A stretch of DNA of 64,000 nt from Pseudomonadota bacterium (lineage in GTDB: Bacteria > Desulfobacterota > Desulfobacteria > Desulfobacterales > JAHIVH01): contig JAHIVH010000129.1 of assembly GCA_018816735.1 (NCBI GenBank), positions 138,628-202,627 of the forward strand. Reading direction: 5' to 3'. Under the pieces are notes generated by a model, which did no database searches, was not told the origin of the DNA, and worked only from the letters and a program-made list of their open reading frames with translations. Both the position numbers and the translations under genes were made by a program. Shown here piece by piece: positions 1,847-40,077 of this stretch. Every line of letters begins with the position of its first letter. The first letter of the stretch is position 1.

Positions 1847-3376
1847 TTGTCTGTTAATTTATTTTTTTGTGATGGGTTTATGAAACGAATACTTCTGGTT
1901 TATGCAGTTAATCATACCATTCAGAACCCTTTAGGTGGGGTTGCCCCCCCTTCGGGCCTGTCATGGATACAGAAATCCCTTTATGTAAAGGGGTTTGACT
2001 ATCGCACCTGTGACCTTTCCCTTGCCAGGGAAAAGGAAGATATTGAAGCGTTTATCAAACAAGCGGTCAATACATATCAACCAGATGCTGTGGGCATTTC
2101 CATTAGAAATATTGATACTTCCGTGAATCCGCCACGAACCTTTTTCCCATTTTTAAAGGACGTCGCACTTGCGATCCGTCGTGAAACAGATGTCCCCATG
2201 ATTCTGGGCGGTCCTGGATTTTCTCTGTATTCCAAAAAATGCATGGAGATTATGGCGGCGGATTATGGCATCGTGGGAGAAGGAGAAGCGTCGTTTCCTG
2301 AATTGTTGAATGCTATTTTTTCCGGTAATGAATTGAGTCCATCTGTCGCCGGTCTGATTTCAAAAAGAAACGGGGCGTTTCAGGAGATTCCCAGGGAAAT
2401 TTTTTTGGATTACACAACATTTGGGAAAGCCCGGCATGAGGGCATTGATTATGAATCTTATGAAAAAATCGGAGGCTATTATCCCATTCAGACAAAAAGA
2501 GGGTGCGCGTTTAATTGCATATATTGCGATTACCCCTATCTTGAGGGCCGGCAGTATCGCATGAGACAACCATCGGTGATTGTGGACGAGATCGAAGAAC
2601 TGACAGGAACCTATGCGTTGAATCATTTTTTCTTTACGGACAGTGTGTTTAATTTCCCATCAGAATTTTGTAAAAGCATTCTTGACGAAATTATAAAAAG
2701 AAAGTTGGCAATCAAGTGGACAGCATATGTGAACCCCAGAGATTTGACATTGGGTCTTGTTGAACGGTTCAAACAATCCGGATGTACACGCGTTGAGGTT
2801 ACCATAGACACACTGACACGCCCAACCCTTATATCCTATCAGAAAAATTTCAGCCAGGAAGAAATTATCAATGCCGATGCCTGCTTCAGGCAGTTTGATA
2901 TTCCCACCTATTACTGGATCAATCTCGGCGGGCCAGGTGAAACACAAGAAACCTTTGGGAGGAATCTGGCCCATCTTGGACGGCTGACCCACGTGACAAA
3001 GGGATGGATCGGTGTGGGGTTTGTTGTCCTTCCGGGCAGCCCCCTTTATGATCTGGCCGTTCAGGAAGGCCGTATTGAGCGAAATGGCATAAGAGAACCG
3101 TATTTATATATAAGCAAAAATCTGCCTGAAGACTATGCGGAACAGATTCAGATGTTTGCCATAGACCACCCGGAATGGTTTTCCGTTTATGATATGCTGG
3201 ACACCGATTACCGGCAGATGGCCATGAAAATCATCAATGAAAAAATCAGGGATCACTGGCCCATGCAGGCAGGCTATGGCGAAAAAAGGCGACAAAAATA
3301 CAGGCAGGGCGATCTGAAAATCATGTCTCACCAAGTGTATCTGGAAAAATTGCAGAAGAAACAAAGGAAAAAGTAG
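1847..3376 (+). CDS. B12-binding-domain radical SAM protein
   Basis: Radical-SAM cluster motif CAFNCIYCDYPY (CxxxCxxC), preceded by an N-terminal Rossmann-like region (ILLVYAV..., ILGGPGFS) typical of class B radical SAM enzymes. TTG at 1847 lies 6 nt after AGGAGA. An alternative in-frame ATG is at 1880. Confidence 0.8.
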   Translation: MSVNLFFCDGFMKRILLVYAVNHTIQNPLGGVAPPSGLSWIQKSLYVKGFDYRTCDLSLAREKEDIEAFIKQAVNTYQPDAVGISIRNIDTSVNPPRTFFPFLKDVALAIRRETDVPMILGGPGFSLYSKKCMEIMAADYGIVGEGEASFPELLNAIFSGNELSPSVAGLISKRNGAFQEIPREIFLDYTTFGKARHEGIDYESYEKIGGYYPIQTKRGCAFNCIYCDYPYLEGRQYRMRQPSVIVDEIEELTGTYALNHFFFTDSVFNFPSEFCKSILDEIIKRKLAIKWTAYVNPRDLTLGLVERFKQSGCTRVEVTIDTLTRPTLISYQKNFSQEEIINADACFRQFDIPTYYWINLGGPGETQETFGRNLAHLGRLTHVTKGWIGVGFVVLPGSPLYDLAVQEGRIERNGIREPYLYISKNLPEDYAEQIQMFAIDHPEWFSVYDMLDTDYRQMAMKIINEKIRDHWPMQAGYGEKRRQKYRQGDLKIMSHQVYLEKLQKKQRKK

Positions 3377-3381
3377 AGGGA

Positions 3382-4257
3382 TCAGTTTATTTCAAAATCG
3401 ATCACCTGGTTTCTGCCCCTTCGTTTCAGTTCGACAGAAAGTGAGCTCGATGAGTTCAACTGGTTATAGAATCCCATGGCATCATCTATGCTGCTGATTT
3501 TCCGGCCATCGATCCCGGTGATGATATCGCCATTTCTCAGGCCGAATCTTCTGAAAATGGAATTCCGGTTGATTCTGGAAACCTTGATTCCTTCTGCATG
3601 GGGATAAAAACGGACCTGTTTCATGAGGGTGTTCAGATCACCCATGGCGTTTTCTATTTCGGTTCGTTTGATCGTTCTTTTGGATCGAACAGGTGGTCGC
3701 GTTGACCGGTTTCTGCTATAGCGATTGTATGGACGTCTTCTGCTGTCGCTTTTGAATTCTTCCAGTTCAAGAATTTCATTTTCCCCTTCAAACTTCAGTA
3801 TGATTTTTTCATCGAGAATCTGAACGATCGTTGCTCCCTGAACCTGATCCCCTGTGGAATAAAGCATCTGGGTATTTCGGCTTTTGGGACCTTTTGTTTC
3901 TTCGATCACGGCAAATGGTTTCCGGGTGTTGCCGGTCACCGTCCCCCATAATTTTAAGTCAAGTTCAGTCAGCTCAAGCGATTCATCAACGATTTTTTTT
4001 TCCTTTTTTTCAGATGGCCCATCTGTTTTAAAAAGATCCCGCTTGATGATGGACTTGTAGTATGAAAACGGATGGAGTGTTTTTTTGCTTTTCGGGAGAA
4101 AGGCACTTTGCTCTGAACGGGTGGATGCCCCCGATATATTTGCTGATTCGATAAATGTATCGAACTTTGCATCGGCAATATTGTAAATCATGTCCACAAA
4201 TATATAGGACAAAAGCGTTATTAACAGCGTATTTATAATGATAAAGTTGGTCTTCAT
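3382..4257 (-). CDS. GspC-like membrane protein with a C-terminal PDZ domain (orphan; no other T2SS genes nearby)
   Basis: N-terminal TM helix (FIIINTLLITLLSYIFV). C-terminal PDZ-like segment (GIKVSRINRNSIFRRFGLRNGDIITGIDGRKISSIDDA). Size and layout resemble type II secretion protein C. Confidence 0.55.
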   Translation of the reverse strand: MKTNFIIINTLLITLLSYIFVDMIYNIADAKFDTFIESANISGASTRSEQSAFLPKSKKTLHPFSYYKSIIKRDLFKTDGPSEKKEKKIVDESLELTELDLKLWGTVTGNTRKPFAVIEETKGPKSRNTQMLYSTGDQVQGATIVQILDEKIILKFEGENEILELEEFKSDSRRRPYNRYSRNRSTRPPVRSKRTIKRTEIENAMGDLNTLMKQVRFYPHAEGIKVSRINRNSIFRRFGLRNGDIITGIDGRKISSIDDAMGFYNQLNSSSSLSVELKRRGRNQVIDFEIN

Positions 4258-4414
4258 TGATGCTTTTTCCCCTTAAATGGATATCACGGTCATCACCCTC
4301 TGAAGTGCAAATGTATCAGAGCCGGGTTAGGTTATGCATAGGGTGGATTATGTATAACGCATGTAAAAGGAGTGTATTTGCCATGCATTTGGCTGGCTTG
4401 AATTATTTTTTTGC

Positions 4415-4428
4415 ACTGACCGGTCAGT
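4415..4428. promoter_or_regulatory. Perfect 14-bp palindrome ACTGACCGGTCAGT, a candidate operator
   Basis: Read directly from the sequence. It lies 5 nt upstream of a -35-like TTGACT. A 12/14 match with similar flanks occurs at 14715-14728. Confidence 0.5.
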
Positions 4429-4433
4429 TTTTA

Positions 4434-4462
4434 TTGACTTTGTTTTTTTTCCTTTTTATAGT
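4434..4462 (+). promoter_or_regulatory. Sigma-70-type promoter candidate (TTGACT-17 nt-TATAGT)
   Basis: -35 at 4434-4439 and -10 at 4457-4462, with a counted 17-nt spacer. It sits about 55 nt upstream of the 4515 start codon. Confidence 0.5.
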
Positions 4463-4514
4463 TACGGTCATAAATGCCAAATCATGCAGACTGCATTGAC
4501 ACGGAGGAAACAAT

Positions 4515-5987
4515 ATGAACACAACCGGATATGCCATCAACACATACCCTGATACGAAAAAGATATATGACCAATTACATGCGCTGATTCGTCAGCCCAT
4601 GCGCACGTTGAAACCGTCTGCCATGGAACGGTATCTGTCGTATTTCAAGGCGCGTTGCCCGAAATCGAAACAAATGATCGATTCGGCCAGAAACGTCATT
4701 CCCGGAGGGGTTCAACACAATCTGGCATTTAACTATCCCCACCCGCTTGCCTTTGAACAAGCAAAAGGCGCTTATCTTTACGATATTGACGGCAATCGCT
4801 ACATTGATTTTCTGCAGGCCGGAGGCCCTACGGTTCTGGGGAGCAATCCTGACGCGGTGAGGGAAAAAATAATTCATCTTCTTGAGACCTGCGGCCCTGT
4901 GACCGGGCTTTTTCATGAGTATGAACTGAAACTGGCGAAATTCATTTGTGACCATTTTTCTTCAGTGGACCGGTTTCGAATGTTGGGGAGCGGCACGGAA
5001 AGCTGCATGGCTGCCATTCGTGTGGCCAGGCTTGCCACAGGTAAAAAATATATCATCAAAATGGGAGGGGCATACCACGGCTGGAGTGATCAGCTTTCTT
5101 ACGGCATGAGGATTCCGGGCACTGGATCTCTGGAATCCCATGGCATTCCAAAATCGTGTTTCAGATATACCCAGGAGGTCTATCCGAATGATATTGAGGC
5201 CCTCGAGAAAAAACTTTCCATGAACCGGTATCGTGGCGGAACGGCAGCGGTTATTCTGGAACCGGTGGGACCGGAGAGCGGCACCAGGCCGGTTGATTAC
5301 AATTACAATCAAAAGGCCCGTGAACTCTGTGACCGGTTTGGCGCGTTGCTGATTTTTGATGAAGTGGTCACGGCCTTCAGAGTAGGCATTGACGGTGCGC
5401 AAGGGTATTTCAAGGTGAAACCGGATTTGACGGTTTTCGGAAAAGTAGTGGCAGGCGGGTATCCTTCAGCAGGCGGACTTGGCGGTAAGGAGGAATACAT
5501 GGCCTTCCTTGCAGCAGGCGTTGGCGGGAAGAAATCCAAACAGGCCCACGTGGGCGGGACACTTGCCGCAAACCCGTTAAGTGCTGCAGCCGGATATTAT
5601 ACCTTGGTGGAAATAGAGAAAACAAACGCCTGCGAGAAGGCAGGGCGGGCCGGAGATCGTCTGACAAAAGGTCTTCAGGCAATTATGGGAAAATACGGGC
5701 TTCCGTTTGTGGTTTACAATCAGGGGTCAATTTGCCATCTGGAGACAGTGGGCACCATGCTGTTTGATATCAATCTGTTCAAACCCTGGCAGATTCCATC
5801 CCGTCTCAAGGAGATTCACGCCAGGAAGGATGTGATGACCCATATGGGTGCGGCTTACATGGCAGAAGGTATTGTCACCCTGGCCGGTAGCAGGCTGTAT
5901 ACCTCTTCTGCAGATACCGACGATATTATCGATGATGCGCTTTCGCGATTTGACCGGATTTTTTCTGAGATTGAGGGAGTGAATTGA
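4515..5987 (+). CDS. Class III PLP aminotransferase / glutamate-1-semialdehyde aminomutase-like enzyme with a ~60-aa N-terminal extension
   Basis: GSAM-like motifs: GSGTESCMAAIRVAR, LIFDEVVTAFR, and the PLP-lysine context DLTVFGKVVAGGYP. At 490 aa it is longer than typical HemL, so it is not called hemL. Confidence 0.85.
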   Translation: MNTTGYAINTYPDTKKIYDQLHALIRQPMRTLKPSAMERYLSYFKARCPKSKQMIDSARNVIPGGVQHNLAFNYPHPLAFEQAKGAYLYDIDGNRYIDFLQAGGPTVLGSNPDAVREKIIHLLETCGPVTGLFHEYELKLAKFICDHFSSVDRFRMLGSGTESCMAAIRVARLATGKKYIIKMGGAYHGWSDQLSYGMRIPGTGSLESHGIPKSCFRYTQEVYPNDIEALEKKLSMNRYRGGTAAVILEPVGPESGTRPVDYNYNQKARELCDRFGALLIFDEVVTAFRVGIDGAQGYFKVKPDLTVFGKVVAGGYPSAGGLGGKEEYMAFLAAGVGGKKSKQAHVGGTLAANPLSAAAGYYTLVEIEKTNACEKAGRAGDRLTKGLQAIMGKYGLPFVVYNQGSICHLETVGTMLFDINLFKPWQIPSRLKEIHARKDVMTHMGAAYMAEGIVTLAGSRLYTSSADTDDIIDDALSRFDRIFSEIEGVN

Positions 5988-6658
5988 TGGACCCGGTTGA
6001 AAACATCCGCATAACGGGTCTTTCAAACGCCCAAACAATCGTCTGGGACGCGGGGCTGCGACTTCATCGGGAAGGACTTGTGGCAAGAACCTGGGGGAAT
6101 ATCAGTTTCCGGGTGAATGAAAATCTGTTTGTCATCACCCCAAGCGGTATCGCCTATGAGCACTTGACACCCGAGAGAATTGTCCCTGTAAACTTAAGGG
6201 ATTTAACTTATCATGGCAAACTGAAACCCTCTTCGGAAAAAGGAATGCATGCGGCTATTTATCGGGATCGGCCTGAGATTAAGGCGATTATCCACACCCA
6301 TCAGCAGGCTGCTTCAAGTGTGTCAGCAGCCCGTATGGATATTGAAAATATACAGGGAGAAGATAGAATGATTTTGGGGCCGGTTGTAAAAACAACACCG
6401 TATGCACTTCCCGGAACAAAAAAGCTTGCCAAATCAGCGTTCATGGCCATCCGGGGAAGCAATGCCACCCTTCTTTCAAACCATGGGGCGATATGTATCG
6501 GAAAGAATATGGCGGAGGCGTTTCACGTGTGCATATCTCTTGAATCACTTTGCGAGCGTTTTGTGGCGGAAAAGGTCATGGCAGCCGCAGGCGTAAAAGA
6601 ATACGCGCCTGGCATGATCCATCGATTTTATCTTGAACACCATGCCCGAGGCCGATAA
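5987..6658 (+). CDS. Class II (metal-dependent) aldolase/adducin-family protein, fuculose-phosphate-aldolase-like
   Basis: Catalytic/zinc motifs are present: KPSSEKGMH, IIHTHQQAAS (HxH) and LLSNHGAICIG. The ATG at 5987 overlaps the upstream TGA (TGATG). Confidence 0.85.
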   Translation: MDPVENIRITGLSNAQTIVWDAGLRLHREGLVARTWGNISFRVNENLFVITPSGIAYEHLTPERIVPVNLRDLTYHGKLKPSSEKGMHAAIYRDRPEIKAIIHTHQQAASSVSAARMDIENIQGEDRMILGPVVKTTPYALPGTKKLAKSAFMAIRGSNATLLSNHGAICIGKNMAEAFHVCISLESLCERFVAEKVMAAAGVKEYAPGMIHRFYLEHHARGR

Positions 6659-7294
6659 ATGGAAAAAAGAGATATCAGAAAGGAAGTCGCCGACAATTAT
6701 GAAGTGCTTCTTTCAGCAGGTGTCATCAGAAAAGATGGCGGAAGTTTCAGCATGCAGTTTGAAGGGGAGCTGTATTTCCCGGATGGACAGACCGGCCCCT
6801 CTGATTTATATGGCAAAAGAATTGACGAAAAACTACCTGAACAGACACCAGCCTGGTGCAGGCTTCATCAATACTTGTACAGGCAACGGAAAGATATCCG
6901 TGTCCTTCTCACTTCACGGCTGTCTTACACCATGACTGCTGCCTGCGCCGGGCATGAAGTGCCGCCGCTTCTCGATGATTTCGCTCAGCTTGTGGGGGTG
7001 ACCGCCCGGGTTGTTTATGTGGAACCAACGGACCCGGTGTTTTTTAGAAAGATCCTGAAAGGGATGCGGAGACGAAATGCCGTATTGATTCCGCAGATGG
7101 GGGGGCTTTGTGCAGCCGCTTCCTTTGAAGATACGCTTGCCGTGTCCCAGGTGTTGGAAAAGGGATGCCGGGCCTATATCGACACGGCATTTTTGGGTGG
7201 CGGTTTTCGGATCAGCTGGATCGAATCCTGGCTCATGCGGCTTGTGTTCAAGTTTAAATATTCAAATTTGAAAAATAAGTTATCAGGCAGTTAA
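6659..7294 (+). CDS. Class II aldolase-like paralog lacking the metal-binding histidines (probable non-catalytic partner)
   Basis: It aligns by eye to the preceding aldolase. The HxH position reads LLTSRLSY, and the NHG position reads IPQMGGLC. Its start directly abuts the upstream stop. Confidence 0.6.
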   Translation: MEKRDIRKEVADNYEVLLSAGVIRKDGGSFSMQFEGELYFPDGQTGPSDLYGKRIDEKLPEQTPAWCRLHQYLYRQRKDIRVLLTSRLSYTMTAACAGHEVPPLLDDFAQLVGVTARVVYVEPTDPVFFRKILKGMRRRNAVLIPQMGGLCAAASFEDTLAVSQVLEKGCRAYIDTAFLGGGFRISWIESWLMRLVFKFKYSNLKNKLSGS

Positions 7295-7375
7295 AGTCGG
7301 TGAAAAATGGTGAAACCAAACTTGTTTAGAATTACTGTCTAAAGGTATTGAGAAGCAGGTTTCTTTGGGTGCCTT

Positions 7376-8329
7376 TTACTGCATGAAAAATGCGGTCATA
7401 TACTTAAAAGCCGTAAACAGGATGATTCCGGTGAGCATCCATTTGATCCCTTTTGCAGGGACGAATTTTTGGCACCGCGCGCCAAGATACATGCCAGCCA
7501 TGCCGCCTACGCCGAAAAGCGCTCCAAGTATCCAATCGGGTGCTACAGAAATATTGGGATAAAGGTGGGCGATAGCCTGATAGAAAATCACACCGGCGAC
7601 AGACGTGACAAATGTACCCATAAGCGCGGCCCCTGCAACAGTGTAGACGGGCAACTTGAAAAAGGTGACAAAAAAAGGTGCGATGATAGAGCCTCCCCCA
7701 ATGCCATAAATACCACCGATAATGCCCACGACGAAGCTTAGCGCGAAAACACTCCAGAAAGGTACATCAAACTGTTCATCATAAAATGTATATCCCAAAC
7801 GTCTCAGATTGAAATGTGTCACCCTGACCACCGGTAAAATATTTTTACCAGGCTTTTCTGAACCTGAGGAACTTGAACGGGTAAGACGGACCATTTCCTG
7901 AAAACGTTTTTCACTGTTCGTATTGCCCGTGTTTTTTTTCATCAAGTCCCGGATGAGTTTAATACCAATATACAGAAGAACAGACGCAGCGAAAAGTTTG
8001 AAATGTCTGGGGTTGGGAAGATATAACACGCGGATGAATGCACCAATAAGAACCCCAGGAAGGGTGCCTATGATCACAATCCATGTTAATGGCCATATCA
8101 TTCGTCCTTCTTTGAAATAGCGATAGACACCCGCAGGAATCGCAACGATATTAAAAAGTTGGTTGGTGGCACTTACCGAAGGATGTGTATACCCTAGAAA
8201 GGATATTTGAAAGGGTAGCAGTAGAAACGCCCCGGACACGCCGCCCATGGAGGTGAAAAAGGAGATGCCAAAAGCGATCAATGGTGGCAACCAGGGCTCG
8301 ATTTCAATACCCGCTGTATGAAACAACAT
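7376..8329 (-). CDS. TauE/SafE-family anion (sulfite/sulfonate-type) exporter
   Basis: Polytopic membrane protein with two Gly-rich repeat halves (GGVSGAFLLLPF and GGIYGIGGGSIIAPF) separated by a hydrophilic loop. Confidence 0.8.
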   Translation of the reverse strand: MLFHTAGIEIEPWLPPLIAFGISFFTSMGGVSGAFLLLPFQISFLGYTHPSVSATNQLFNIVAIPAGVYRYFKEGRMIWPLTWIVIIGTLPGVLIGAFIRVLYLPNPRHFKLFAASVLLYIGIKLIRDLMKKNTGNTNSEKRFQEMVRLTRSSSSGSEKPGKNILPVVRVTHFNLRRLGYTFYDEQFDVPFWSVFALSFVVGIIGGIYGIGGGSIIAPFFVTFFKLPVYTVAGAALMGTFVTSVAGVIFYQAIAHLYPNISVAPDWILGALFGVGGMAGMYLGARCQKFVPAKGIKWMLTGIILFTAFKYMTAFFMQ

Positions 8330-8384: not shown

Positions 8385-9473
8385 CTACGAAATAAAGACA
8401 ATTTGTTTTTCCGGTATTGCGAGTTTAATTTTTTTCCCCTGAAACAGATTATATTTCTTTTCAAGATATTTTGGCATCTTTATTTCAAAATCATATTCCA
8501 TAGGGCTGCCCGCTAATTTGGCATATATCATGAAATTCTCCGGAAGACGCAAAATGGACACAATCTCAACGTGGAAAAGATTATTTTTTAATGATCCCTT
8601 TAAAGGGAACCCATCCTTGATGATTTTAATATCTTGCGGCTTGATACATATTTTTACCGTTTGCCCTGATGGTATTTTCTTTGGGATCACCATACTGAAA
8701 TGGCCAAAATCAAGATTCATTGTTTCGTTGCAGGCCCCCACGATTCCAGAAAAAATATTGCGATAGGTCAAATACCGGGCGACTCCTTCACTCGCGGGCT
8801 GTTCAAATATAATTTGTTTTAAATCACTTTGATGCAGTTTGCCATTTAACAGAACCGATATTCTATCACCCATGCTGTATGCTTCTTCAAGATTGTGGGT
8901 AATATGAAAAGCAGTTATGCCTACCTCATTGATGATTGTTTTTAATTCGATCCAAAGGGTTCGTTTGGCTCCTTCGTCAATGGAGGAAAAGGGTTCATCG
9001 AGCAGTACGATATCCGGTTGTATGGCTAAAGCCCTGGCAAGAGCCACTTTCTGCTTTTCTCCACCTGACAGGTGGTGAACATTCCTCTTTCGGAGTTTTT
9101 GGATATCAAGGATGGAACAAAGTCTATCAACAATACGGTCCGGGTCTTTGACCTTATTATTTTTTCCGTGAAAACCGAACCGGATGTTCCCCTCTACATT
9201 TAAATGGGGGAAAAGGGAATAATTCTGTGGAACATAGCCCATACACCTACGTTCGGGAACTTCCTTTGTAATATCCTTATCCTTTAAGAAAATCGTTCCG
9301 GTGTTGACACTGTGAAAACCCAAGATACATTTCATTAAGGATGTTTTGCCACTCCCCGTGGGGCCAAGCAGGATATGGTACTCCCCCTTTTCACAAGAGA
9401 GGTTAATGTTTTGCAATGAAAATTTGCCCAACGACAGATTCAACGACTCAATTTTTAAATAGGAGGTTTTCAC
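8385..9473 (-). CDS. ABC transporter ATP-binding protein, molybdate/tungstate type, with a C-terminal TOBE-like extension
   Basis: Walker A GPTGSGKTS, signature LSGGEKQKVALARAL, Walker B IVLLDEPFSSID. A ~120-aa C-terminal extension is present. It overlaps the permease gene by 4 nt. Confidence 0.85.
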   Translation of the reverse strand: MKTSYLKIESLNLSLGKFSLQNINLSCEKGEYHILLGPTGSGKTSLMKCILGFHSVNTGTIFLKDKDITKEVPERRCMGYVPQNYSLFPHLNVEGNIRFGFHGKNNKVKDPDRIVDRLCSILDIQKLRKRNVHHLSGGEKQKVALARALAIQPDIVLLDEPFSSIDEGAKRTLWIELKTIINEVGITAFHITHNLEEAYSMGDRISVLLNGKLHQSDLKQIIFEQPASEGVARYLTYRNIFSGIVGACNETMNLDFGHFSMVIPKKIPSGQTVKICIKPQDIKIIKDGFPLKGSLKNNLFHVEIVSILRLPENFMIYAKLAGSPMEYDFEIKMPKYLEKKYNLFQGKKIKLAIPEKQIVFIS

Positions 9474-10246
9474 AATTTCCCGCCTTGAACAGATCTGACG
9501 AAAAACAGAATGGCCAGAGACATGACAACAAGGATGGTGATATAAATTAATGCACCCGTGATGTCGGCTGACTCAAAGCTTAAATAAATCGCAGTCGGTA
9601 TAGTTTCTGTCTTCATGGTAGTAGCCCCTGCCAGCGTTACTGTTGCGCCGAACTCACCGATAGCTCTTCCCCAGACCAATAAAAAAGATCCCATAAGACC
9701 CCTGCCAGCCATGGGTATCACGACCTTTTGAAAGGTCTGTATTTTATTGTAACCTAAAGTCCGGGCCAGGTTTTCATATTCGGGGTCGATCCCTTCAAAC
9801 GTGGTTCTCAGTAATCTTATGGACAGGCCGACGATAACAAAAAATTGTGCAACAACAATCCCTTTTACCTCAAAGACAATGGCACCGAAATGGTGTTCAA
9901 TCTGTTTTCCAACAGCGGTGTTGAAAAAAATGAGCAACATCGCGCCAAGGGCTATGGGCGAAAGCACAATGGGCAGGTCTAACAGCGTATCAATAAAAGC
10001 CTTGCCGAAAAAAGACTGCCGTGAAAACAAATACGCAACCGGGACAGAAGAAAGAATTGCAACAACAGATGAAATCGTGGCGGTTAACAGTGAAAGTTTG
10101 ATTGCAAACCAAATACGATCAAAATGAGGGAAGGACAATGCATTTGTGCCAGCGAGTTCAATAATCATGCTACCAAAAAGGCTGATAAACACGAATATGA
10201 GCAACACAGTCGCACCCCACATCAAGGTGTCAAAGGTGCGATTCAT
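9470..10246 (-). CDS. ABC transporter permease (ModB/WtpB-like)
   Basis: Six-TM permease with an EAA-type loop (YENLARTLGYNKIQTFQKVVIPMAGRGL). It abuts the binding-protein gene. Confidence 0.85.
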   Translation of the reverse strand: MNRTFDTLMWGATVLLIFVFISLFGSMIIELAGTNALSFPHFDRIWFAIKLSLLTATISSVVAILSSVPVAYLFSRQSFFGKAFIDTLLDLPIVLSPIALGAMLLIFFNTAVGKQIEHHFGAIVFEVKGIVVAQFFVIVGLSIRLLRTTFEGIDPEYENLARTLGYNKIQTFQKVVIPMAGRGLMGSFLLVWGRAIGEFGATVTLAGATTMKTETIPTAIYLSFESADITGALIYITILVVMSLAILFFVRSVQGGKL

Positions 10247-11113
10247 TTATTTTTTCCATAAATCTTTGATAATTTCGAAATATTTGTCGGGAAGGGTATA
10301 TAGACCACCGACAGCAGCCTCTGGCGCAAATTTTTTTGCATCTTCCAGAATACTCAAGTACCCGTATTTTTTATAAATGGATTTTCCTATCGGTGAAAGG
10401 GTATATTCAATGAAGGCCTTTGAAAGATTGACGTCCTTGGTATACACGGGAATTGATATCGGGATATATGAAATTCTAGGTATTTGTTTCGGATTGATAG
10501 CTACAAATTCCATGCGCTCCGGATTCCAGAAATGAAACACGCGCCAGCCGAGAATGGCATCAACCTTATTCAACGCTGCCAAATTCGCTGTTTTTGAACA
10601 GGAGCCCCCGAAGGTAACCACATTTTTTAAAACCGGTTCCAAGAGACTATTTTTTTCCAGTAGTTCTATACCGTATAAACCTAGGCACACCGTTTCCGGA
10701 TTCCCGATCCCCAAGCGAAGGCCTGGCCGGGTCAGATCCTCCAATGTATGGATATTTGCGGGATTACCCGCTGGCGTGATAATGGCTGGAACAAGGTAGG
10801 CAACGATTTGATCACTGTTTTCAATGATCAGTTTTTTCTTTTCGGCAATGATAATATAATCCGGTGACCCCGGCAAATAGATCTCACCCTTTTTCGATAA
10901 CTCGATTTGAGAAAGCAAGGTGCCCGATCCGCCGAAAATCATATTGACTTCGACATTCTTGTCTTCCTTGAATTTTGCGGCGATCTCCTCCATGGCCGGT
11001 TTATTGGCAGAGCCGCAAAATACTGTTATGGATTGCATCTCGGCAAACCCATTTTCCCACCCAATGCATACAATTAATAAGACCATTAATAAAACGATTC
11101 TGAACCTGTTCAT
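10247..11113 (-). CDS. Periplasmic molybdate/tungstate-binding protein (ModA/WtpA-like)
   Basis: Signal peptide, then ModA-like motifs (ITVFCGSANKPAMEEI, IFGGSGTLLSQIE, LPGSPDY). First gene of the ABC operon. Confidence 0.8.
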   Translation of the reverse strand: MNRFRIVLLMVLLIVCIGWENGFAEMQSITVFCGSANKPAMEEIAAKFKEDKNVEVNMIFGGSGTLLSQIELSKKGEIYLPGSPDYIIIAEKKKLIIENSDQIVAYLVPAIITPAGNPANIHTLEDLTRPGLRLGIGNPETVCLGLYGIELLEKNSLLEPVLKNVVTFGGSCSKTANLAALNKVDAILGWRVFHFWNPERMEFVAINPKQIPRISYIPISIPVYTKDVNLSKAFIEYTLSPIGKSIYKKYGYLSILEDAKKFAPEAAVGGLYTLPDKYFEIIKDLWKK

Positions 11114-11150
11114 TCTTTTTCTTTTTCCTTTTCATTCTATGAAGTTTTTT

Positions 11151-11202
11151 TGCACTCAATAATCACCCATCCTTAAAACACTTCCCGAGTTTCTGCACTC
11201 AA
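11151..11202 (-). promoter_or_regulatory. Two copies of the 9-mer TGCACTCAA (plus-strand reading), 43 bp apart, in the promoter region of the oxyanion ABC operon
   Basis: Copies at 11151-11159 and 11194-11202, both followed by xAA and preceded by a T-run. They lie between the regulator gene end (11252) and the binding-protein start (11113). Confidence 0.3.
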
Positions 11203-11251
11203 CAAATCGATTCAGCCCCAACCGCTATTGCCCGTTTTATTTTACCGTAAG

Positions 11252-12286
11252 CTACACCGTTTCTTCATCACCCGTTGTCCGGGTATCTATTCCTTTAAAA
11301 CGGGTTAAGTTTTTTCTATAGCTCACGCTGCGAATGACCTTACGCAAGCCCACGATGCGAGGATCTTTTTCCATGTATTTGGGGTAGCATAAATCAAATG
11401 TTTCCTGACTGACCTGAAGAAATTCAAGACCGGCCTGTTCGGCGGCCAGACGGTGGCAGACACCCGCGTCCACCCATCCCTGTCGCACGGCCATGGTGAC
11501 CTCCCAGTGATTTTGGGCTACATTCTTGATGGCCCTGTCGCTTGGCAGAACCTTGTCCTGGCACCTACGGGCTCCGGAACCTTGCTTGCGGCCAATCCAA
11601 CGAATGTGAGGAGAAACGGTTTTCCTAATCTCCGTCAAGCCTTCTCCGGGGCGTACGGCTATGCCTTCGTGCCAAACCGCACCCCTTAACAAACCAAATC
11701 CCTTGCCCAGAAGGTCGCAAACCACGGATGCATTACCCCCAGGTTCATCGATTTCCCGGAGGTGCGTGCCTGCCACATGCACCACTCCTTGTTTGAGCAA
11801 AGAAAGCGCTTCATTACTGGAGCGGTGAAAGGACAACACGCGCATACCAGTCTTTGCGCCTATCATGGCCGATAGGAGCCCCACCGCCGGATCGCAAGAG
11901 GCCATGATCAGTGTCATACTTGAGGCGTCTGACGAAAGCGGTTTTCGTGATCGGCCATCGAACCAACCGTCAGGCGGCAGAATGTTGTAAGGCAAAGGTT
12001 CTACCGGAAAAGCCAGAACTTTTTGGTCGAAAGAGGCTTCCCAGTATGCCGGAAAATCTTGGGTGGGATGCCATGCCCAAGCGATGGTGGCACCTTCCCC
12101 TTCTTCGGAGAACAATTCTTCAACCGTACAATCAAGTGCACGTGCTAATGCCAGCGCCGCATGCACTGATGGAACCAGCGCGCCGTTTTCGATGGCGGCA
12201 ATGCGGGAACGTGAAACATTTGAGCGACGGGCCAACTCTGCCTGTGTCCAATTTTTCTTATTGCGGAAAATACGTAAACGGGACAT
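11252..12286 (-). CDS. XRE-family HTH regulator fused to a periplasmic-binding-protein-like (PBP-like) sensor domain
   Basis: N-terminal HTH (WTQAELARRSNVSRSRIAAIENG) followed by a ~270-aa PBP-fold-like domain. Located immediately upstream of the molybdate/tungstate ABC operon. Confidence 0.7.
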   Translation of the reverse strand: MSRLRIFRNKKNWTQAELARRSNVSRSRIAAIENGALVPSVHAALALARALDCTVEELFSEEGEGATIAWAWHPTQDFPAYWEASFDQKVLAFPVEPLPYNILPPDGWFDGRSRKPLSSDASSMTLIMASCDPAVGLLSAMIGAKTGMRVLSFHRSSNEALSLLKQGVVHVAGTHLREIDEPGGNASVVCDLLGKGFGLLRGAVWHEGIAVRPGEGLTEIRKTVSPHIRWIGRKQGSGARRCQDKVLPSDRAIKNVAQNHWEVTMAVRQGWVDAGVCHRLAAEQAGLEFLQVSQETFDLCYPKYMEKDPRIVGLRKVIRSVSYRKNLTRFKGIDTRTTGDEETV

Positions 12287-12405: not shown

Positions 12406-13002
12406 TTAAAACTGCACTTTTACCGGGTTTAAAAGGCCCGTGGAGAGTATGGCAAATATCGTTTCAATGATTTCCTCCATGGAGTGATCATCGGTTTCAT
12501 TCACCTGATTGTTGCAGAGGGATTCGATGATTCCTATCAGAGCAGTGGCGGAGAGATGCTGGTTCAGGGGTTTTAAATAGCCTCGTTCCTGACCGGTTTG
12601 AAGAATGTTTGTCACAAAGTCTATGAATTGGTTCCGGATTTGTTTTATTTCCGTGAGTGTCTCCGGATCAAGGCCGCTTGACAGCTCGTTTACATAAATT
12701 TTGGTGACTTCGCTGTGCTTGAGGTAAAGCCTGATGCTGCTCGATAAAAGCAGCCGGAAGTGGTCCAGAAAGGGAAGATCCGATTCAAGTTCCTTGCTGA
12801 TGGTCTGCATGATTTTTTTCATGCCGTCTGTGACGGTAGCCGCAAAGAGTTTGGATTTGCTTGAATAGTTGTAATAAAGGGTGCCTTTGGCCACCTTGGC
12901 CACATTTGCAATCTCATCCATTTTTGCCTGATGAAATCCCTTTTCGGAGAAGATTTTCGTGGCAGCTTTCAGTATTTTCTGTTGTTTTGTAAGGTTCTGC
13001 AT
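12406..13002 (-). CDS. TetR/AcrR-family transcriptional regulator
   Basis: N-terminal TetR HTH (ILKAATKIFSEKGFHQAKMDEIANVAKVAKGTLYYNYSSK). About 200 aa. Confidence 0.85.
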   Translation of the reverse strand: MQNLTKQQKILKAATKIFSEKGFHQAKMDEIANVAKVAKGTLYYNYSSKSKLFAATVTDGMKKIMQTISKELESDLPFLDHFRLLLSSSIRLYLKHSEVTKIYVNELSSGLDPETLTEIKQIRNQFIDFVTNILQTGQERGYLKPLNQHLSATALIGIIESLCNNQVNETDDHSMEEIIETIFAILSTGLLNPVKVQF

Positions 13003-13048: not shown

Positions 13049-14641
13049 TTACCTTTTGTTTAACGTGCGAAAGAGTGTTTTGTTTTTTTGATAAAGGGAT
13101 TTGAAAACATCAAAGTTACGATCGTAAACTGCCCGGTATTCCGGCTGGGGATGAAAACTGCTTCCCATGGGGATCAATTCTTTTGCACCTTTGAAGGTCG
13201 GGAGTATTTTTAACCCCACCCCGCAGACAATGGCGGCGCCGACCGTTCCGATATCCTGGGGATATTTAACCGTTCGGATTTTCCTGCCTGTCACATCTGC
13301 CATGATCTGGCACCAGACATCGGATTTGGCCCCACCACCTACGAAACAGATGCTTTTCTGAAATGGAATTTTCTTTTCCATGGCTTCCAGTATCCATCTT
13401 TTGTGATAGGAGACGCCTTCAAGCACTGCCCGGATCATCTGGCGTTTACCGGTGTTCATGCCGATGTTGAAGAATATGCCCCGTGCGTTTGCATCTTCTC
13501 TGGGCGCACGATTGCCATGGAGCCAGGGTGTAAAGATGAGATTGCCTGCGCCAGGCTCGGTTTCTGCCACCACCTGGTTCAGGAGTTTGTAAAGATCTTC
13601 CATCTGTTCTTCAGGGTCTTTTTTTCCCTGAAGATAGATGCCTATTTCGTCTAAAGCCAGATGGTCCCGGACCCATTTCAGGCACGCGCCGGATGTTTCC
13701 TGTTCACCCACATAATTGTATCTTCCGGGCACAGCACCCAGAATGGACGCCATGAAATTTTCAATATCGACCCATCGTTTGTTCACATTGGCAGCCACCC
13801 ACCCTGATGTTCCCACGTAAATATGGGTATCAAAAAGGTCCAGGCAACCCGATCCGATTGCGGCCATGGTCACATCGCCGCCCCCGCCAAATACCGGAAT
13901 ACCTGGAGAAAGACCTGTTTCAGATGCGGCATTTGCGCTGAGGGTGCCCACCACATCTGTGGCATGGACGACTTTTGGCAGATGATCCATATTCACACCG
14001 AATGTGTGGCAGAGACCGGGGTGCCATTTTTCCTTTCCGGGCCGGGTGTCGTAAATGAACGTGACATGGGCGGAATCACGGGTCATGCCGATTTTTCCGG
14101 TACACCTCAAAATCAGGTAATCTTTGACATCCAGCCATTTGTGGACTTTTTTGAAGATGGCGGGCTCGTTCTCGCGAACCCAATGGTATTTCCAGAGCGG
14201 ATCCTTGGGGGTGGCGGCAACACCTCCGGTTATTCGCAAGGCATTCAATGCTTTTATCAAATTCATGCCGCTGATTCTCAACAATCCATGGCAGAGATGG
14301 TCTTCCATCTGGCGTGTGGCCCGCCCGTCCATGTATATCATGGGATTCCTCAATGCATTTCCCTGACGGTCCACGAGTATTGACCCCTGCATCTGGCAGC
14401 AGAACGCCAGACCTTTGATTGCATCCGGTGCAAGGGATGCTTTTGCGAGCACTTCCCTGCTTGTGGTGCAAACCGCCTGCCACCAGTCATCTGCTTTTTG
14501 TTCAACGCCGCCGTCATCCGTAACATGAAGGGGATATTCGGCAAGTGCTGCACCCAAAAGATCCAGCGTTTTTCCGATACGGTAAAGGCAGGTTTTGCAC
14601 CCGGTGGTTCCCAGGTCATAGGTCAGTACGAACGTATCCAT
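13049..14641 (-). CDS. FGGY-family carbohydrate kinase (xylulokinase/ketose-kinase-like)
   Basis: FGGY N-terminal motif YDLGTTGCKTCLY and C-terminal motif FVGGGAKSDVWCQIMADVTG. I prefer the start at ATG 14641 (RBS AAGAGG 7 nt upstream), because a strong promoter-like element lies inside the longer 14707 ORF. Confidence 0.85.
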   Translation of the reverse strand: MDTFVLTYDLGTTGCKTCLYRIGKTLDLLGAALAEYPLHVTDDGGVEQKADDWWQAVCTTSREVLAKASLAPDAIKGLAFCCQMQGSILVDRQGNALRNPMIYMDGRATRQMEDHLCHGLLRISGMNLIKALNALRITGGVAATPKDPLWKYHWVRENEPAIFKKVHKWLDVKDYLILRCTGKIGMTRDSAHVTFIYDTRPGKEKWHPGLCHTFGVNMDHLPKVVHATDVVGTLSANAASETGLSPGIPVFGGGGDVTMAAIGSGCLDLFDTHIYVGTSGWVAANVNKRWVDIENFMASILGAVPGRYNYVGEQETSGACLKWVRDHLALDEIGIYLQGKKDPEEQMEDLYKLLNQVVAETEPGAGNLIFTPWLHGNRAPREDANARGIFFNIGMNTGKRQMIRAVLEGVSYHKRWILEAMEKKIPFQKSICFVGGGAKSDVWCQIMADVTGRKIRTVKYPQDIGTVGAAIVCGVGLKILPTFKGAKELIPMGSSFHPQPEYRAVYDRNFDVFKSLYQKNKTLFRTLNKR

Positions 14642-14677: not shown

Positions 14678-14707
14678 ACTATAGGGGAGGCGGTATGGTT
14701 CTGTCAA
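14678..14707 (-). promoter_or_regulatory. Sigma-70-type promoter candidate (TTGACA-18 nt-TATAGT on the minus strand)
   Basis: Reverse complement of 14702-14707 is TTGACA, and of 14678-14683 is TATAGT, with a counted 18-nt spacer. It sits about 35 nt upstream of ATG 14641. Confidence 0.5.
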
Positions 14708-14714: not shown

Positions 14715-14728
14715 ACCGACTGGTCAGT
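14715..14728. promoter_or_regulatory. Second copy (12/14) of the ACTGACCGGTCAGT palindrome
   Basis: Minus-strand reading is tttgaACTGACCAGTCGGTttt, followed after 7 nt by the -35 TTGACA. This is the same architecture as the 4415-4428 site. Confidence 0.45.
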
Positions 14729-14746: not shown

Positions 14747-16195
14747 CTACACAATAAAATTCTTCTCGGAAAATGTCTCCGGATCAGTATAGGTGATTTT
14801 TGTGAGATACGTATGGAGGTCAATATCTGCCTTGGCTGTATATTTTTTAAAGGTATAGGTCAGGACCACCTTGTTTTCCGGAGAAGGCTGGATGGCAAAG
14901 TCTCCTTTGAAGGCCGGATAAGTGTTCCTGAATTCCATCAACCGGATCAGTCTTTGCACAACCGGTTTTTTTACGGCGTCATCAATTTCATCCAGGGTAA
15001 AATTGTGCCGGTTGATATCTCTTCCGTTTCGGGTTTTCTCTACCAGATCGATATCGTTTTCCCCGGCCAGAAGACCGACATAGTAAACCTGGGGCACGCC
15101 AGGTGCAAAAAACTGGATGGTCCTTGCGGCAATATAGGAATTATCGTTACATTCCAGAGCCGAGTAGTAGGTGCAGTTCACCTGATAAATATCAAGGTTC
15201 TGATAGGCTTCGCTGGAATAAACCGGTTTGACGTTTGAGCCTTTTTCATAAAGCCCGTTTATGGTTTTTTCAATGTCTGACGCTGTCATGAGATCTTCAA
15301 CATCCACCACCCCTATGCCGTCATGGGTATCTAAAGTGGTCACCTGTTTTCTGGGGCATATCTGGAGCCAGTTTAAAAGAGCGGTATTGGTATGGTGATA
15401 CAATGTGTGAAGCACCAGCATGGGAAGGGCGAAGTCATAGACCCAGTACCCTTTTTCCGAAAGTTTTTTCTGATAGGTGTAGTGGCCGTGGACTTCCGGC
15501 AGAATCCGTGAGTCAAAAGGCGTCACAAAACCAGCTAACATTTCAAGAAGTTTCCAGACGTCAGGCTCGAGAAAAAAACAGTTGGTGCCCAGCTTGATGG
15601 TGGTATAGGCAAATGCATCCATCCGGATAAATTCCGGTTTTTTTCTTGAAAGGAAAATCAGAAAATCCCTGAACAGTTCCCGTGTCTTCGGGGATGTAAC
15701 ATCAAGGTCGATCTGTTCAAAGTCAAACGTGCACCAGAGGGTTTCAAGAGATCCGTCAGGACGTTGCACATCCTGAAAGGGCGGCCTAGGTTTCCGGGTG
15801 TATACTTTTTCAAGATCCTTTTTATCTATTTTTCCATCCGGGCTCAGTTTGTTGAAGCTCATAAATATATCCGCAAACTCGGAATCCTTTCCGTTTTCCA
15901 GATAATCGACGAAGTATTTGGATTGTCTTGAAATGTGGTTCACCATGAAATCGATCATAATATCATAGTCTTCCTGTATCATTTCAATGTCACGCCAGGT
16001 GCCGAATGCGGGGTCCACCTGATAATAGGTCATGGGGGCAAACCCCCTGTCTGCAGATGACGGGTAAAAGGGGAGAATATGGATGCCGCCCACTGCTTTC
16101 CTGAAATAGCGCCTCAATACGTAATGGAGTTCCTGAAGATTTTTACCCAGGCTATCCGGGTAGGTAATGACCTGAATTCTGTTTTTAAATGGCAT
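14747..16195 (-). CDS. GH13_18 sucrose-phosphorylase-family glycoside phosphorylase (donor specificity not determinable from sequence)
   Basis: Family motifs with the catalytic triad contexts intact: GGIHILPFYPSSADRGF, FIRMDAFAY (nucleophile Asp), LPEVHGH (acid/base Glu), LDTHDGIGV. Confidence 0.8.
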   Translation of the reverse strand: MPFKNRIQVITYPDSLGKNLQELHYVLRRYFRKAVGGIHILPFYPSSADRGFAPMTYYQVDPAFGTWRDIEMIQEDYDIMIDFMVNHISRQSKYFVDYLENGKDSEFADIFMSFNKLSPDGKIDKKDLEKVYTRKPRPPFQDVQRPDGSLETLWCTFDFEQIDLDVTSPKTRELFRDFLIFLSRKKPEFIRMDAFAYTTIKLGTNCFFLEPDVWKLLEMLAGFVTPFDSRILPEVHGHYTYQKKLSEKGYWVYDFALPMLVLHTLYHHTNTALLNWLQICPRKQVTTLDTHDGIGVVDVEDLMTASDIEKTINGLYEKGSNVKPVYSSEAYQNLDIYQVNCTYYSALECNDNSYIAARTIQFFAPGVPQVYYVGLLAGENDIDLVEKTRNGRDINRHNFTLDEIDDAVKKPVVQRLIRLMEFRNTYPAFKGDFAIQPSPENKVVLTYTFKKYTAKADIDLHTYLTKITYTDPETFSEKNFIV

Positions 16196-16216
16196 ATACG
16201 TTCCTGTGTGCTTAGG

Positions 16217-18424: not shown

Positions 18425-19316
18425 TGCCAAAAAGCGGCCGGAACACCTGATAGAATGAATCCTCCTCGGGGACGGCACCTCTGATTTTACATATTTCTTT
18501 GGCAAAATCCGTGGCCACGGACATGATTTTATCCGGCTTCCATTTTTTAAGGTATCCAACGGCCAGAACTGCGGAAAAACCATCTCCCGCACCCACGGTA
18601 TCCGCGATTTCAAAATTGGAGTCAAAACACAAGACTGTGTAGTGCTTTCCGTTTTTTATAATTTCACTGCCATCTGCACCCTTGGTCACAGCCACCATTT
18701 CAATATCATATGTTTTCATCATGTTTTTGATGAATGCGTCGTTCTTCCCGGTGAATCCGTTCATTTCCTTGATGATATTGAGTTCATCAAGATTCAGTTT
18801 CAATATATCCGCATGCGTGAGGCAGGAAGAAACAAGTGTTTTGTCAAAGCATCCTTTTCTCAGATTGATATCGCACATGCATTTGGTCTGTTTGTCTTTT
18901 TTCCTGATAAAGTCTGAGAAAAGAGAAGATGCTTTTTTCGTACGTTGAAAAACAGACCCAAAATAGACGAGATCGACCGGCACCTTTCCGGCCAGTAAAA
19001 GTGTTTTGGAGAGTTTGATGTGATCAAAGGCGGCATCCGGGAGAATTTCAAAATCCGGTACACCTTTTTCATCAAGGTTGACAATTACGCTGCCGGTTTT
19101 ATAATTCGGATCGATCTGGACGTCCGAAGGATAAAATCCTTCCTGCTTTAGATAGGATATGATGTCTTCGCCATCCGGGTCGAATCCCACTCTTGAAATA
19201 AACCGGACAGGGAATCCCAGCTTTTTCAAATGAAATGCAAAATTAAAAGGAGCCCCGCCCATGCGTTTGTGAGTGGGAAACATGTCGAAAAGGATTTCGC
19301 CGATGGAAACAATCAT
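18402..19316 (-). CDS. PfkB-family sugar kinase (fructokinase-like)
   Basis: Motifs GGAPFNFAFHLKKLG and DTVGAGDGFSAVLAVG. Its stop overlaps the SPS start region. Confidence 0.8.
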   Translation of the reverse strand: MIVSIGEILFDMFPTHKRMGGAPFNFAFHLKKLGFPVRFISRVGFDPDGEDIISYLKQEGFYPSDVQIDPNYKTGSVIVNLDEKGVPDFEILPDAAFDHIKLSKTLLLAGKVPVDLVYFGSVFQRTKKASSLFSDFIRKKDKQTKCMCDINLRKGCFDKTLVSSCLTHADILKLNLDELNIIKEMNGFTGKNDAFIKNMMKTYDIEMVAVTKGADGSEIIKNGKHYTVLCFDSNFEIADTVGAGDGFSAVLAVGYLKKWKPDKIMSVATDFAKEICKIRGAVPEEDSFYQVFRPLFGNGEKPDD

Positions 19317-28894: not shown

Positions 28895-28930
28895 AAAAAA
28901 GGCAGGGCTATAATGGCTCTGCCTTTTTTT
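28895..28930. terminator. Bidirectional intrinsic terminator hairpin
   Basis: AAAAAA-GGCAGGGC-loop-GCTCTGCC-TTTTTTT, located between two convergent genes. Confidence 0.6.
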
Positions 28931-29574: not shown

Positions 29575-29576
29575 TT

Positions 29577-30612: not shown

Positions 30613-30626
30613 CTGTTTTTACCCTA

Positions 30627-31937: not shown

Positions 31938-31951
31938 ATCTCCTTTTTAAA

Positions 31952-34030: not shown

Positions 34031-34061
34031 TAAATAAAAAAGGGATATTCCCTGTATTTAA

Positions 34062-35896: not shown

Positions 35897-35901
35897 GTCA
35901 T

Positions 35902-36837: not shown

Positions 36838-36852
36838 TTCCGGACTCTCCTC

Positions 36853-40024: not shown

Positions 40025-40077
40025 GATTTCCGTCCTTGGAAGGGCAACTTAATTACGAGACGAAAAGGGATAGCACC

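Follow-up and report, generated by a model that had tools for sequence, protein, structure and literature searches.

A conserved operator, a companion TetR regulator and a predicted two-subunit aldolase in a candidate amino alcohol module from Desulfobacterales

The locus studied here raises the question of what pathway is served by an operon that encodes a transaminase, a class II aldolase and a degenerate aldolase paralog, and how this operon is controlled together with a second one encoding a kinase and a TetR-family regulator. Both operons lie in a stretch of 64,000 nucleotides (nt) of the Desulfobacterales contig JAHIVH010000129.1, the whole of which is called the window below. The original prediction, made from the window alone, had proposed that they share a palindromic operator and might act in the catabolism of an amino-deoxy sugar or polyol. 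In the current study, comparison with related loci indicated that the regulon is very probably real. The module is read here, tentatively and with slightly less than even confidence, as a TetR-controlled inducible system for a small primary amino alcohol, in which a two-subunit aldolase and a kinase would lead the carbon to central metabolism. The features of the window on which this reading is built are the following.

4415-4428, strandless: operator O1, a perfect 14-bp palindrome (ACTGACCGGTCAGT) centred at about -48 relative to the predicted transcription start
4434-4462, plus strand: promoter P1, with TTGACT (4434-4439), a 17-nt spacer and TATAGT (4457-4462)
4515-5987, plus strand: transaminase AT, a class-III pyridoxal phosphate (PLP) enzyme of 490 residues, similar to glutamate-1-semialdehyde aminomutase (GSAM) (PF00202, 171 bits)
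5987-6658, plus strand: ALD, putative catalytic class II aldolase subunit of the FucA/DrdA type, 223 residues (PF00596, 163 bits)
6659-7294, plus strand: ALD', putative complementing aldolase-like subunit, 211 residues, with a VPPLLDDFAQ loop and an FLGG...KYS tail
12406-13002, minus strand: TetR-family regulator, 198 residues (PF00440, 54.9 bits; PF17932), presumed binder of O1 and O2
13049-14641, minus strand: XylB-like FGGY-family kinase, 530 residues (PF00370, PF02782), with the start ATG at 14641 after AAGAGG
14678-14707, minus strand: promoter P2, with TTGACA, an 18-nt spacer and TATAGT, matching at 11 of 12 positions
14715-14728, strandless: operator O2, reading ACTGACCAGTCGGT on the minus strand, with two mismatches relative to O1

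The control region of the transaminase operon was confirmed at 4415-4462 as it had been described, namely a perfect 14-bp palindrome placed 5 nt (TTTTA) ahead of a TTGACT-17-TATAGT promoter, and P1 is the top promoter-like match within 4200-7500 (10 of 12 positions). The stop codon of AT overlaps the start codon of ALD (TGATG at 5985-5989), and the ALD stop codon TAA is directly followed by the ATG of ALD' (6656-6661). These overlapping and abutting codons indicate that AT, ALD and ALD' form one translationally coupled operon. The claimed recurrence of the operator before the kinase-TetR operon was also found, since O2 lies 7 nt upstream of the TTGACA of P2. No riboswitch or other RNA element was matched in Rfam at E <= 1 across 4200-7400.

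By arithmetic, about 4 perfect 14-bp palindromes of any sequence are expected in 64 kb, so that one is not rare, and a second copy with at most two mismatches would occur in the window with a chance of p ~0.2. At up to three mismatches, 6 matches were observed in the window versus 1.25 expected, and 0 of 100 shuffles reached 6. The matches with three mismatches at 20808, 27421, 29702 and 62325 were taken as chance; that at 20808 lies inside an open reading frame and lacks the promoter geometry. As evidence for an operator, the palindrome pair of the window alone is only suggestive. The comparative data are decisive, because the same palindrome, spacing and promoter occur at homologous positions in 10 other loci.

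For this comparison, 103 loci were gathered by a search with ALD' as a marker, a motif scan of one genome per species, exact-sequence look-ups and a metagenome scan; ALD' is a rare marker, with 44 matches among 5.8 billion clusters. Every Desulfobacterales locus with a window-type TetR contained the motif ACTGAC-N2-GTCAGT at no more than two mismatches, and the motif was followed by a shared layout consisting of a T-rich gap of 5-7 nt, TTGACA, 17-18 nt and TATAAT or TATAGT. This layout occurred at about 25 sites beside module genes in 10 Desulfobacterales loci. Moreover, about 25 of the 27 matches at up to two mismatches in 1.5 Mb of loci fell in intergenic regions of the module, with about 5 matches expected anywhere by chance. 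The operator was found at these positions, locus numbers being those of our collection.

Ahead of the transaminase operon, identical or with 1-2 mismatches: L001, L005, L008, L009, L011, L014, L015, L092, L093
Ahead of the FGGY kinase: L001, L007, L008, L011, L014, L015, L093
Ahead of the TetR gene itself: L001 (12640), L005 (11476)
As a single operator between a divergent HAD-IB phosphatase gene and the kinase gene: L007, L008, L011, L014, L015, L093
Ahead of a major facilitator superfamily (MFS) transporter: L001, L093
Ahead of a FadL/TodX-family porin: L001, L008, L014

The original prediction depended on conservation of the palindrome upstream of orthologous operons, and it is conserved there in nine loci. 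The metagenome scan for further close relatives yielded 12 loci and no new regulon members. Taken together, these data leave little doubt on our part that the regulon is real.

The TetR gene starts 46 nt after the kinase stop codon and is probably co-transcribed with the kinase gene. Two observations point to the TetR protein as the binder of the operator. First, no other regulator is a constant companion of the module; wherever a locus has enough flanking sequence, a TetR gene is almost always found less than 10 kb from the transaminase operon. Second, the recognition helix co-varies with the operator: in one group (A), the helix VAKGTLYYNY is invariant in the loci that carry ACTGAC-N2-GTCAGT, and in another (B), found in Firmicutes, Leptospira, Spirochaetes and others, the helix ISVGSLYKYF goes with the operator GTGAGTGA-N4-TCACTCAC. 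It is this co-variation, and the regular company of the module, from which we infer that the window TetR, whose nearest relatives are FadR- and FasR-type TetRs, binds O1 and O2. The group B TetRs are 17-22% identical to it, and their palindrome sits at or just past the -10 box, often doubled in the divergent region between the TetR gene and the operon, at these sites.

L017: 3781-3802 and 3896-3915
L064: 7778
L078: 7683 and 7798
L086: 9944-9967
L091: 6505
L095: 1488 and 1590
L099: 811

The two pairings of TetR and operator suggest that the module is under TetR control everywhere, and that the clade of the window uses a distinct regulator with an operator centred at about -48 to -50. As both window promoters are near consensus, the TetR is read as a repressor whose footprint would reach the -35 box and the T-rich spacer. 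Bound at O1 and O2, which abut the -35 boxes, it would keep the AT-ALD-ALD' and kinase-TetR operons off, and it would be autoregulated, because its own gene lies in the operator-controlled kinase-TetR operon. In sister genomes, the same operator would also control the HAD-IB phosphatase, an MFS transporter of the FLVCR type and an outer-membrane channel.

Concerning the transaminase, the GSAM-like character and the N-terminal extension ascribed to AT were borne out, and the enzyme is distinct from HemL. Its scores lie below the HemL cutoffs (273.6 vs 527.3 for TIGR00713; 296.2 vs 398 for NF000818), and in the alignment to 3bs8 it lacks the Arg that binds the substrate carboxylate, with NL-AF opposite PVRAF, an Arg that we take to be Arg32 in Synechococcus numbering. 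On these two grounds, HemL was ruled out as the identity of AT. The PLP lysine and the aspartate are kept, with FGKVVAGG and IFDEV aligning to the GSAM motifs, and the N-terminal extension of about 36-45 residues is conserved and accompanied by two insertions. AT scored 219 bits against the Bacillus subtilis GSAM enzyme, and among its relatives with known structures are GSAM, D-phenylglycine aminotransferase, beta-transaminases, ForI and the aminopentol transaminase FumI; the substrate specificity cannot be read from this homology. Orthologs from Desulfobacterota to Firmicutes are 60-84% identical. The family comprises at least 7,896 clusters at E <= 1e-100, all with generic names only, and its carriers include gut Clostridia, Paenibacillus, Leptospira, Spirochaetes, Bacteroidales, sulfate reducers and Myxococcota.

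The first protein of the aldolase pair was predicted to be a Zn-type enzyme, and ALD retains the FucA residues T26-N29, T43/G44, S71/S72, E73, H92, H94 and H155, metal ligands included, in 68 of 68 orthologs; the position of FucA Tyr113 is Gly or variable. Its top matches in the PDB are DrdA (6btd, 33% identity) and FucA, and its score of 117.9 with the best FucA model lies under the curated cutoff of 264. L-ribulose-5-phosphate 4-epimerase, AraD, has Asp in place of the metal ligand Glu73, in a PSSD motif. ALD has PSSE, the araD models match its N-terminal half only, and TIGR00760 gives 88.5 vs 389, so that AraD was rejected as its identity.

In ALD', the positions H92, H94, H155 and E73 are replaced and the GN and SG phosphate loops are deleted or degenerate, and in 85 of 88 loci the domain with the Asp-Asp loop lacks this catalytic set, called the cis set below. 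The Asp-Asp of its invariant PLLDDFAQ loop aligns with FucA Tyr113/Met114, and its FLGG...Y.KYS C-terminal tail is conserved. Tyr113 of FucA, like the C-terminal tail of that enzyme, acts at the active site of the adjacent subunit. Single-gene aldolases that carry the cis set, the Asp-Asp loop and the tail in one chain account for the other three loci and were found in three lineages (Bacteroidales L087, L091 and Rectinemataceae L022), and those with a PLLDD[FM]AQ loop lie at these positions.

L087: 13019-13681
L091: 8001-8657
L022: about 2757-3386
L096: 5011-5655
L097: 7884-8522

The single-gene enzyme probably represents the ancestral, homo-oligomeric state; its partner in L087, L096 and L097 is a more divergent FGGY kinase of 30-35% identity. 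In Firmicutes, ALD and ALD' are fused in one protein of 385-410 residues. A head-to-tail ALD-ALD' model, for which an alignment of these natural fusions was used, reached a pLDDT of 87 and a pTM of 0.88 and matched DrdA and FucA, including the FucA mutant entries Y113F and Y209F; pLDDT in this model was low for the ~55 N-terminal residues of ALD', and the remainder was confident. The invariant loop and tail, the single-chain forms with both sets of elements and the natural fusions argue that ALD' is probably complementing rather than dead. The label pseudo-aldolase in the original prediction thus holds for the loss of the metal ligands and, if taken to mean a dead paralog, probably fails. From the conservation pattern and the model, we regard it as fairly likely that ALD' is the obligate complementing subunit of a two-subunit aldolase. 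An ancestral homo-oligomer would have been duplicated and the copies would have lost complementary elements; the outcome would be an obligate hetero-oligomer whose activity is confined to the ALD:ALD' interfaces.

The kinase is best matched by XylB among 13 FGGY models (284.2 for TIGR01312, cutoff 380.25; FucK 111 and RhaB 36 bits), and its matches in the PDB are XylB and LsrK. A XylB-like kinase is one that acts on a distal hydroxyl. Kinase orthologs, 48-75% identical, stand beside the transaminase operon in many loci. The HAD-IB phosphatase occurs in about 12 of about 100 loci and has histidinol-phosphatase-type enzymes as its nearest named kin. The porin under the operator in three genera belongs to the FadL/TodX family (55 bits vs the Toluene_X cutoff of 29.7), and the outer-membrane proteins found beside the module in different phyla showed no mutual homology among those compared. 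Homologs of the phosphatase, the MFS transporter and the porin were not found elsewhere in the 64-kb window.

The transporter, which is known from sister loci only, gives the strongest indication of the substrate class. Its alignment with human FLVCR1 and FLVCR2, which are choline and ethanolamine transporters (PMC11168923), spans the full length (133 bits and E = 9e-38 for FLVCR1). In FLVCR1, the amine is engaged by a cation-pi contact with Trp125 and the hydroxyl is bound by Gln214 and Gln471, with Phe348 and Tyr349 lining the site (PMC11168923). Of 10 module transporters from at least five phyla, all 10 keep W125, Q214, F348 and Q471, and all have N in place of Y349. The conserved contacts point to a small ligand with an amine and a hydroxyl, and the amine would be primary because the transaminase needs one. 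On this basis, we lean modestly towards an amino alcohol as the substrate class.

AT and the ALD/ALD' genes are adjacent in every locus collected, and the trio is conserved in about 100 loci, which come from Desulfobacterota, Myxococcota, Leptospira, Spirochaetes, Bacteroidales and Firmicutes. TetR is a usual neighbour and the XylB-like kinase a frequent one. Genes for the kinase, TetR and MFS proteins recur beside AT across at least six phylum-level lineages, being present in Desulfobacterales, Leptospirales, Rectinemataceae, Oceanispirochaeta, Bacteroidales, Syntrophomonadaceae, Lachnospiraceae, Oscillospiraceae relatives and Paenibacillus. This co-occurrence across phyla agrees with the earlier proposal that kinase, aldolase and transaminase belong together. 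The gene order is AT-FGGY-ALD in Bacteroidales and AT-ALD-FGGY in L091, L096 and L097; the Myxococcota operon reads AT-ALD-ALD'-HAD, with neither kinase nor TetR nearby. As no other enzyme was consistently found beside the module among the loci compared, the pathway appears self-contained, with a transporter, a transaminase, an aldolase, a kinase and sometimes a phosphatase.

Based on these components, the following order of reactions is preferred, and it would begin with the PLP enzyme stripping the amino group from an ethanolamine-type amine, which yields nitrogen and a hydroxy-aldehyde. The two-subunit class II aldolase, in which ALD would give the metal and phosphate site and ALD' the Asp-Asp loop and C-terminal tail from the neighbouring subunit, would tie this carbonyl product to the chemistry of dihydroxyacetone phosphate (DHAP) by joining the two into a ketose-1-phosphate. 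The HAD-IB phosphatase would then free the ketose and the XylB-like kinase would convert it to a ketose-5-phosphate. This capture order is favoured because it explains the XylB-like kinase, the sharing of one operator by kinase and phosphatase, and the tight coupling of AT and ALD, the translational coupling being as expected for a reactive aldehyde passed between enzymes; also in its favour, ALD is nearest to FucA and DrdA, which handle C2 aldehydes. Even so, it is doubtful that this is the correct order. In its most specific form, which we consider unlikely, the module would provide a widespread way of assimilating ethanolamine or a similar primary amino alcohol without need of B12 or oxygen: transamination would harvest the nitrogen, the obligate heteromeric aldolase would capture the toxic hydroxy-aldehyde at once on DHAP, and the resulting pentulose-1-phosphate would be converted by the phosphatase and the XylB-like kinase to the 5-phosphate and enter the pentose phosphate pathway.

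Several points weigh against the amino alcohol reading. The phosphatase is confined to the minority of loci given above, and it and the MFS transporter are absent from the window. We know of no precedent for a GSAM-like ethanolamine transaminase. The FadL-family porin and the FadR-like TetR hint at a ligand more hydrophobic than ethanolamine, and the position of the operator upstream of the -35 box is one also used by activators. In addition, the catalytic assignments are at the superfamily level only, because all family scores lie under the curated cutoffs, and the Bacteroidales order of AT, kinase and ALD fits a cleavage route rather than a capture route.

In such a cleavage route, which corresponds to the order of transamination, phosphorylation and aldol cleavage in the original prediction, a 2-amino-2-deoxy-polyol of at least four carbons would lose its C2 amino group by transamination to give a ketose, which the FGGY kinase would phosphorylate and the aldolase would then cleave to DHAP and a small aldehyde. 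This logic of three enzymes needs no phosphatase, and most loci are without one; the ALD site is a complete FucA-type DHAP site, the kinase stands between or directly after AT and ALD in the orders described above, and the replacement of Y349 by N in the transporter could suit a more hydroxylated amine. The route requires phosphorylation at C1 beside the keto group, however, and the kinase is XylB/GntK/LsrK-like, with FucK and RhaB scoring far below XylB. It also leaves the co-regulated phosphatase without a role, and to our knowledge no abundant small 2-amino-polyol occurs in nature. We regard cleavage as possible but doubtful. The idea of an amino-deoxy sugar or polyol as substrate is independently supported by the transporter of the amino alcohol type; the reaction order proposed with it is only one of two viable orders.

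The same enzymes might also run towards synthesis, with DHAP and an aldehyde giving a ketose-1-phosphate, then a 2-amino-polyol-1-phosphate that HAD-IB dephosphorylates, and with the MFS protein exporting the resulting amino-polyol, which would be an iminosugar-like or signalling compound. HisC/HisN, SerC/SerB and GabT1/Yktc1 of deoxynojirimycin synthesis are analogous pairs, the relatives of HAD-IB act on 2-amino-1-phosphate esters, and the Myxococcota operon has the required make-up, with its HAD gene and no kinase or TetR nearby. Since the kinase is co-regulated in most lineages, the outer-membrane channels and the FLVCR-type facilitator under the same repressor suit uptake better, and the surroundings of the module show no conserved genes for tailoring or resistance, synthesis seems quite improbable. 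A lipid amine is very improbable. Sphingoid bases are the main natural 2-amino-1,3,4-triols, and a phytosphingosine-like triol could be degraded or detoxified through a 2-ketone and a 1-phosphate to DHAP and a fatty aldehyde; the porin under the operator in three genera, the TetR nearest to the acyl-CoA-sensing FadR and FasR, and carriers that include fatty-acid specialists (Leptospira, Desulfobacterales) would fit. Lipid substrates are not known for FGGY kinases or FucA-type aldolases, however, most phyla use the other, distantly related TetR, the porins of other phyla are unrelated, and genes for a fatty aldehyde dehydrogenase or acyl-CoA metabolism are not conserved in the module. Still less credible is the salvage of a 5-deoxy or thio sugar derived from S-adenosylmethionine, as in the DHAP shunt or methionine salvage, with a DrdA- or MtnB-like aldolase-fold enzyme and the transaminase acting last. 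The enzyme types of methionine salvage (kinase, aldolase-fold enzyme, HAD, transaminase) are mirrored by the module, the best solved relative of ALD is the 5-deoxyribulose-1-phosphate aldolase DrdA, and a methylthioadenosine/S-adenosylhomocysteine (MTA/SAH) nucleosidase gene adjoins the operon in eight Acutalibacteraceae loci. But an isomerase, an enolase and an MtnK-type kinase are absent, the nucleosidase is limited to one family, and the FLVCR-type transporter is left without explanation.

Some lineages carry further genes beside the module. In a Myxococcota metagenome-assembled genome (L003), a DUF6178 protein (5149-6837) is encoded 61 nt ahead of the transaminase operon, the HAD-IB gene lies inside the operon, and TetR, kinase and palindrome are absent from the locus. 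In Candidatus Fimenecus and related Clostridia (16-17 loci, e.g., L029, 1-7359, and L077, 2497-7469), a divergent operon adjoins the module and encodes a second GSAM/GntE-like transaminase (421 residues), a split transketolase (N and C halves) and two conserved proteins that match no family (255 and 274 residues); a short-chain dehydrogenase/reductase and an unknown protein of 592 residues are encoded nearby. This operon may be an accessory branch of the same metabolism. The Acutalibacteraceae nucleosidase gene (6613-7287 in L044, and in seven similar loci) is divergent to the transaminase operon, and BNR/sialidase-like and GH27-like genes lie downstream. In Leptospira licerasiae (L086, 5234-9174), three tandem paralogs of 394-429 residues, 35-42% identical and with a weak Porin_O_P match, lie directly upstream of TetR and may form a lineage-specific outer-membrane channel for the substrate of the module.

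A TauE/SafE-family membrane protein gene (7376-8329, minus strand) is convergent with the transaminase operon, with no clear intrinsic terminator between them; a link to sulfonates through this gene was rejected, as no other locus has TauE next to the module. Between the two operator-controlled operons, and unrelated to both, lies a cluster (8385-12286, minus strand) for a molybdate/tungstate-type ABC transporter (ModA-like, ModB-like and a WtpC-like ATPase) and an XRE-HTH/PBP_like regulator. Directly upstream of the kinase gene is a sucrose-type compatible-solute cluster (14747-19316, minus strand) encoding an amylosucrase-like alpha-amylase family protein, a sucrose-phosphate synthase/phosphatase fusion (802 residues) and a PfkB kinase; a link between these genes and the kinase was also rejected, since they do not accompany the module in other loci and the kinase gene is served by a separate operator and promoter. 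Farther on, there are genes for TonB, ExbB, a TonB-dependent receptor and a FecCD-type ABC uptake cluster (28930-36873, minus strand), followed by a run of large FHA, TPR and TSP3-repeat proteins, several without a family match (40036-54396, plus strand).

We know of no pathway that matches the combination of transaminase, aldolase, kinase and FLVCR-type transporter. The trio had earlier been left unmatched to any characterised pathway, and a full-text literature search, whose coverage excluded much subscription content, likewise retrieved no description of the module by enzyme combination, operator, phytosphingosine or an ethanolamine/glycolaldehyde route. With these data, a large block of generically annotated metabolism becomes testable as a module of five or six genes with a predicted substrate class. 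Should the substrate resemble ethanolamine, the scoring of ethanolamine use would change for anaerobes and gut bacteria without the eut system, and a new entry point of C2 amines into central metabolism would be added. The aldolase pair would offer a natural case of duplication, complementary loss of cis and trans active-site elements and re-fusion, useful for the study of enzyme evolution and for the engineering of DHAP aldolases, and the two operator/TetR pairs are ready-made orthogonal regulatory parts.

Compared with known systems, the enzymes of the module belong to known superfamilies, and each fails the curated test for its nearest family (HemL, FucA, AraD, XylB). The closest pathways are FucK/FucA for L-fucose and D-arabinose and DrdK/DrdI/DrdA for 5-deoxyribose, which likewise combine a sugar kinase with a Zn-dependent class II aldolase and share the interconversion of a ketose-1-phosphate with DHAP and a C2 or C3 aldehyde, for which ALD keeps the FucA catalytic and phosphate residues. 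The module differs from them in having a PLP transaminase instead of an isomerase, a XylB-like kinase and a split aldolase in which the Tyr113 position would be filled by the Asp-Asp of a second chain. AT resembles GSAM/HemL and GSAM-like transaminases, such as D-phenylglycine aminotransferase, the beta-transaminases, FumI and GntE, in fold, PLP lysine and overall sequence, but it is set apart by scores under every curated cutoff, the missing carboxylate Arg, the N-terminal extension of about 40 residues and the two insertions. Similarly, the module transporter shares the full-length alignment and four of the five ligand contacts with FLVCR1 and FLVCR2, whereas it is bacterial, always has Asn at Y349 and is absent from the window.

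For the pairing of a catalytic with a degenerate complementing chain in class II aldolases, the adducin heads are the sole, loose precedent. These pseudoenzymes of the aldolase-II fold, which were among the structure matches (8iah), have also lost the metal site and function only within alpha/beta hetero-oligomers. Unlike them, ALD' is paired with an intact catalytic paralog and keeps the elements that reach the neighbour's active site in FucA, so that it probably completes catalysis and is more than a scaffold. Finally, the regulatory design is that of an ordinary TetR/operator unit, as in Bacillus FadR, BetI and QacR, with the gene for a small helix-turn-helix protein placed near the genes it controls, a short perfect palindrome both at every regulated promoter and at the operon of the regulator, and repression that is presumably relieved by a ligand. 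What is unusual is that the operator in the window lies just upstream of the -35 box, and not over the -10 box or the start, and that other phyla run the same module by an unrelated TetR lineage with another operator.

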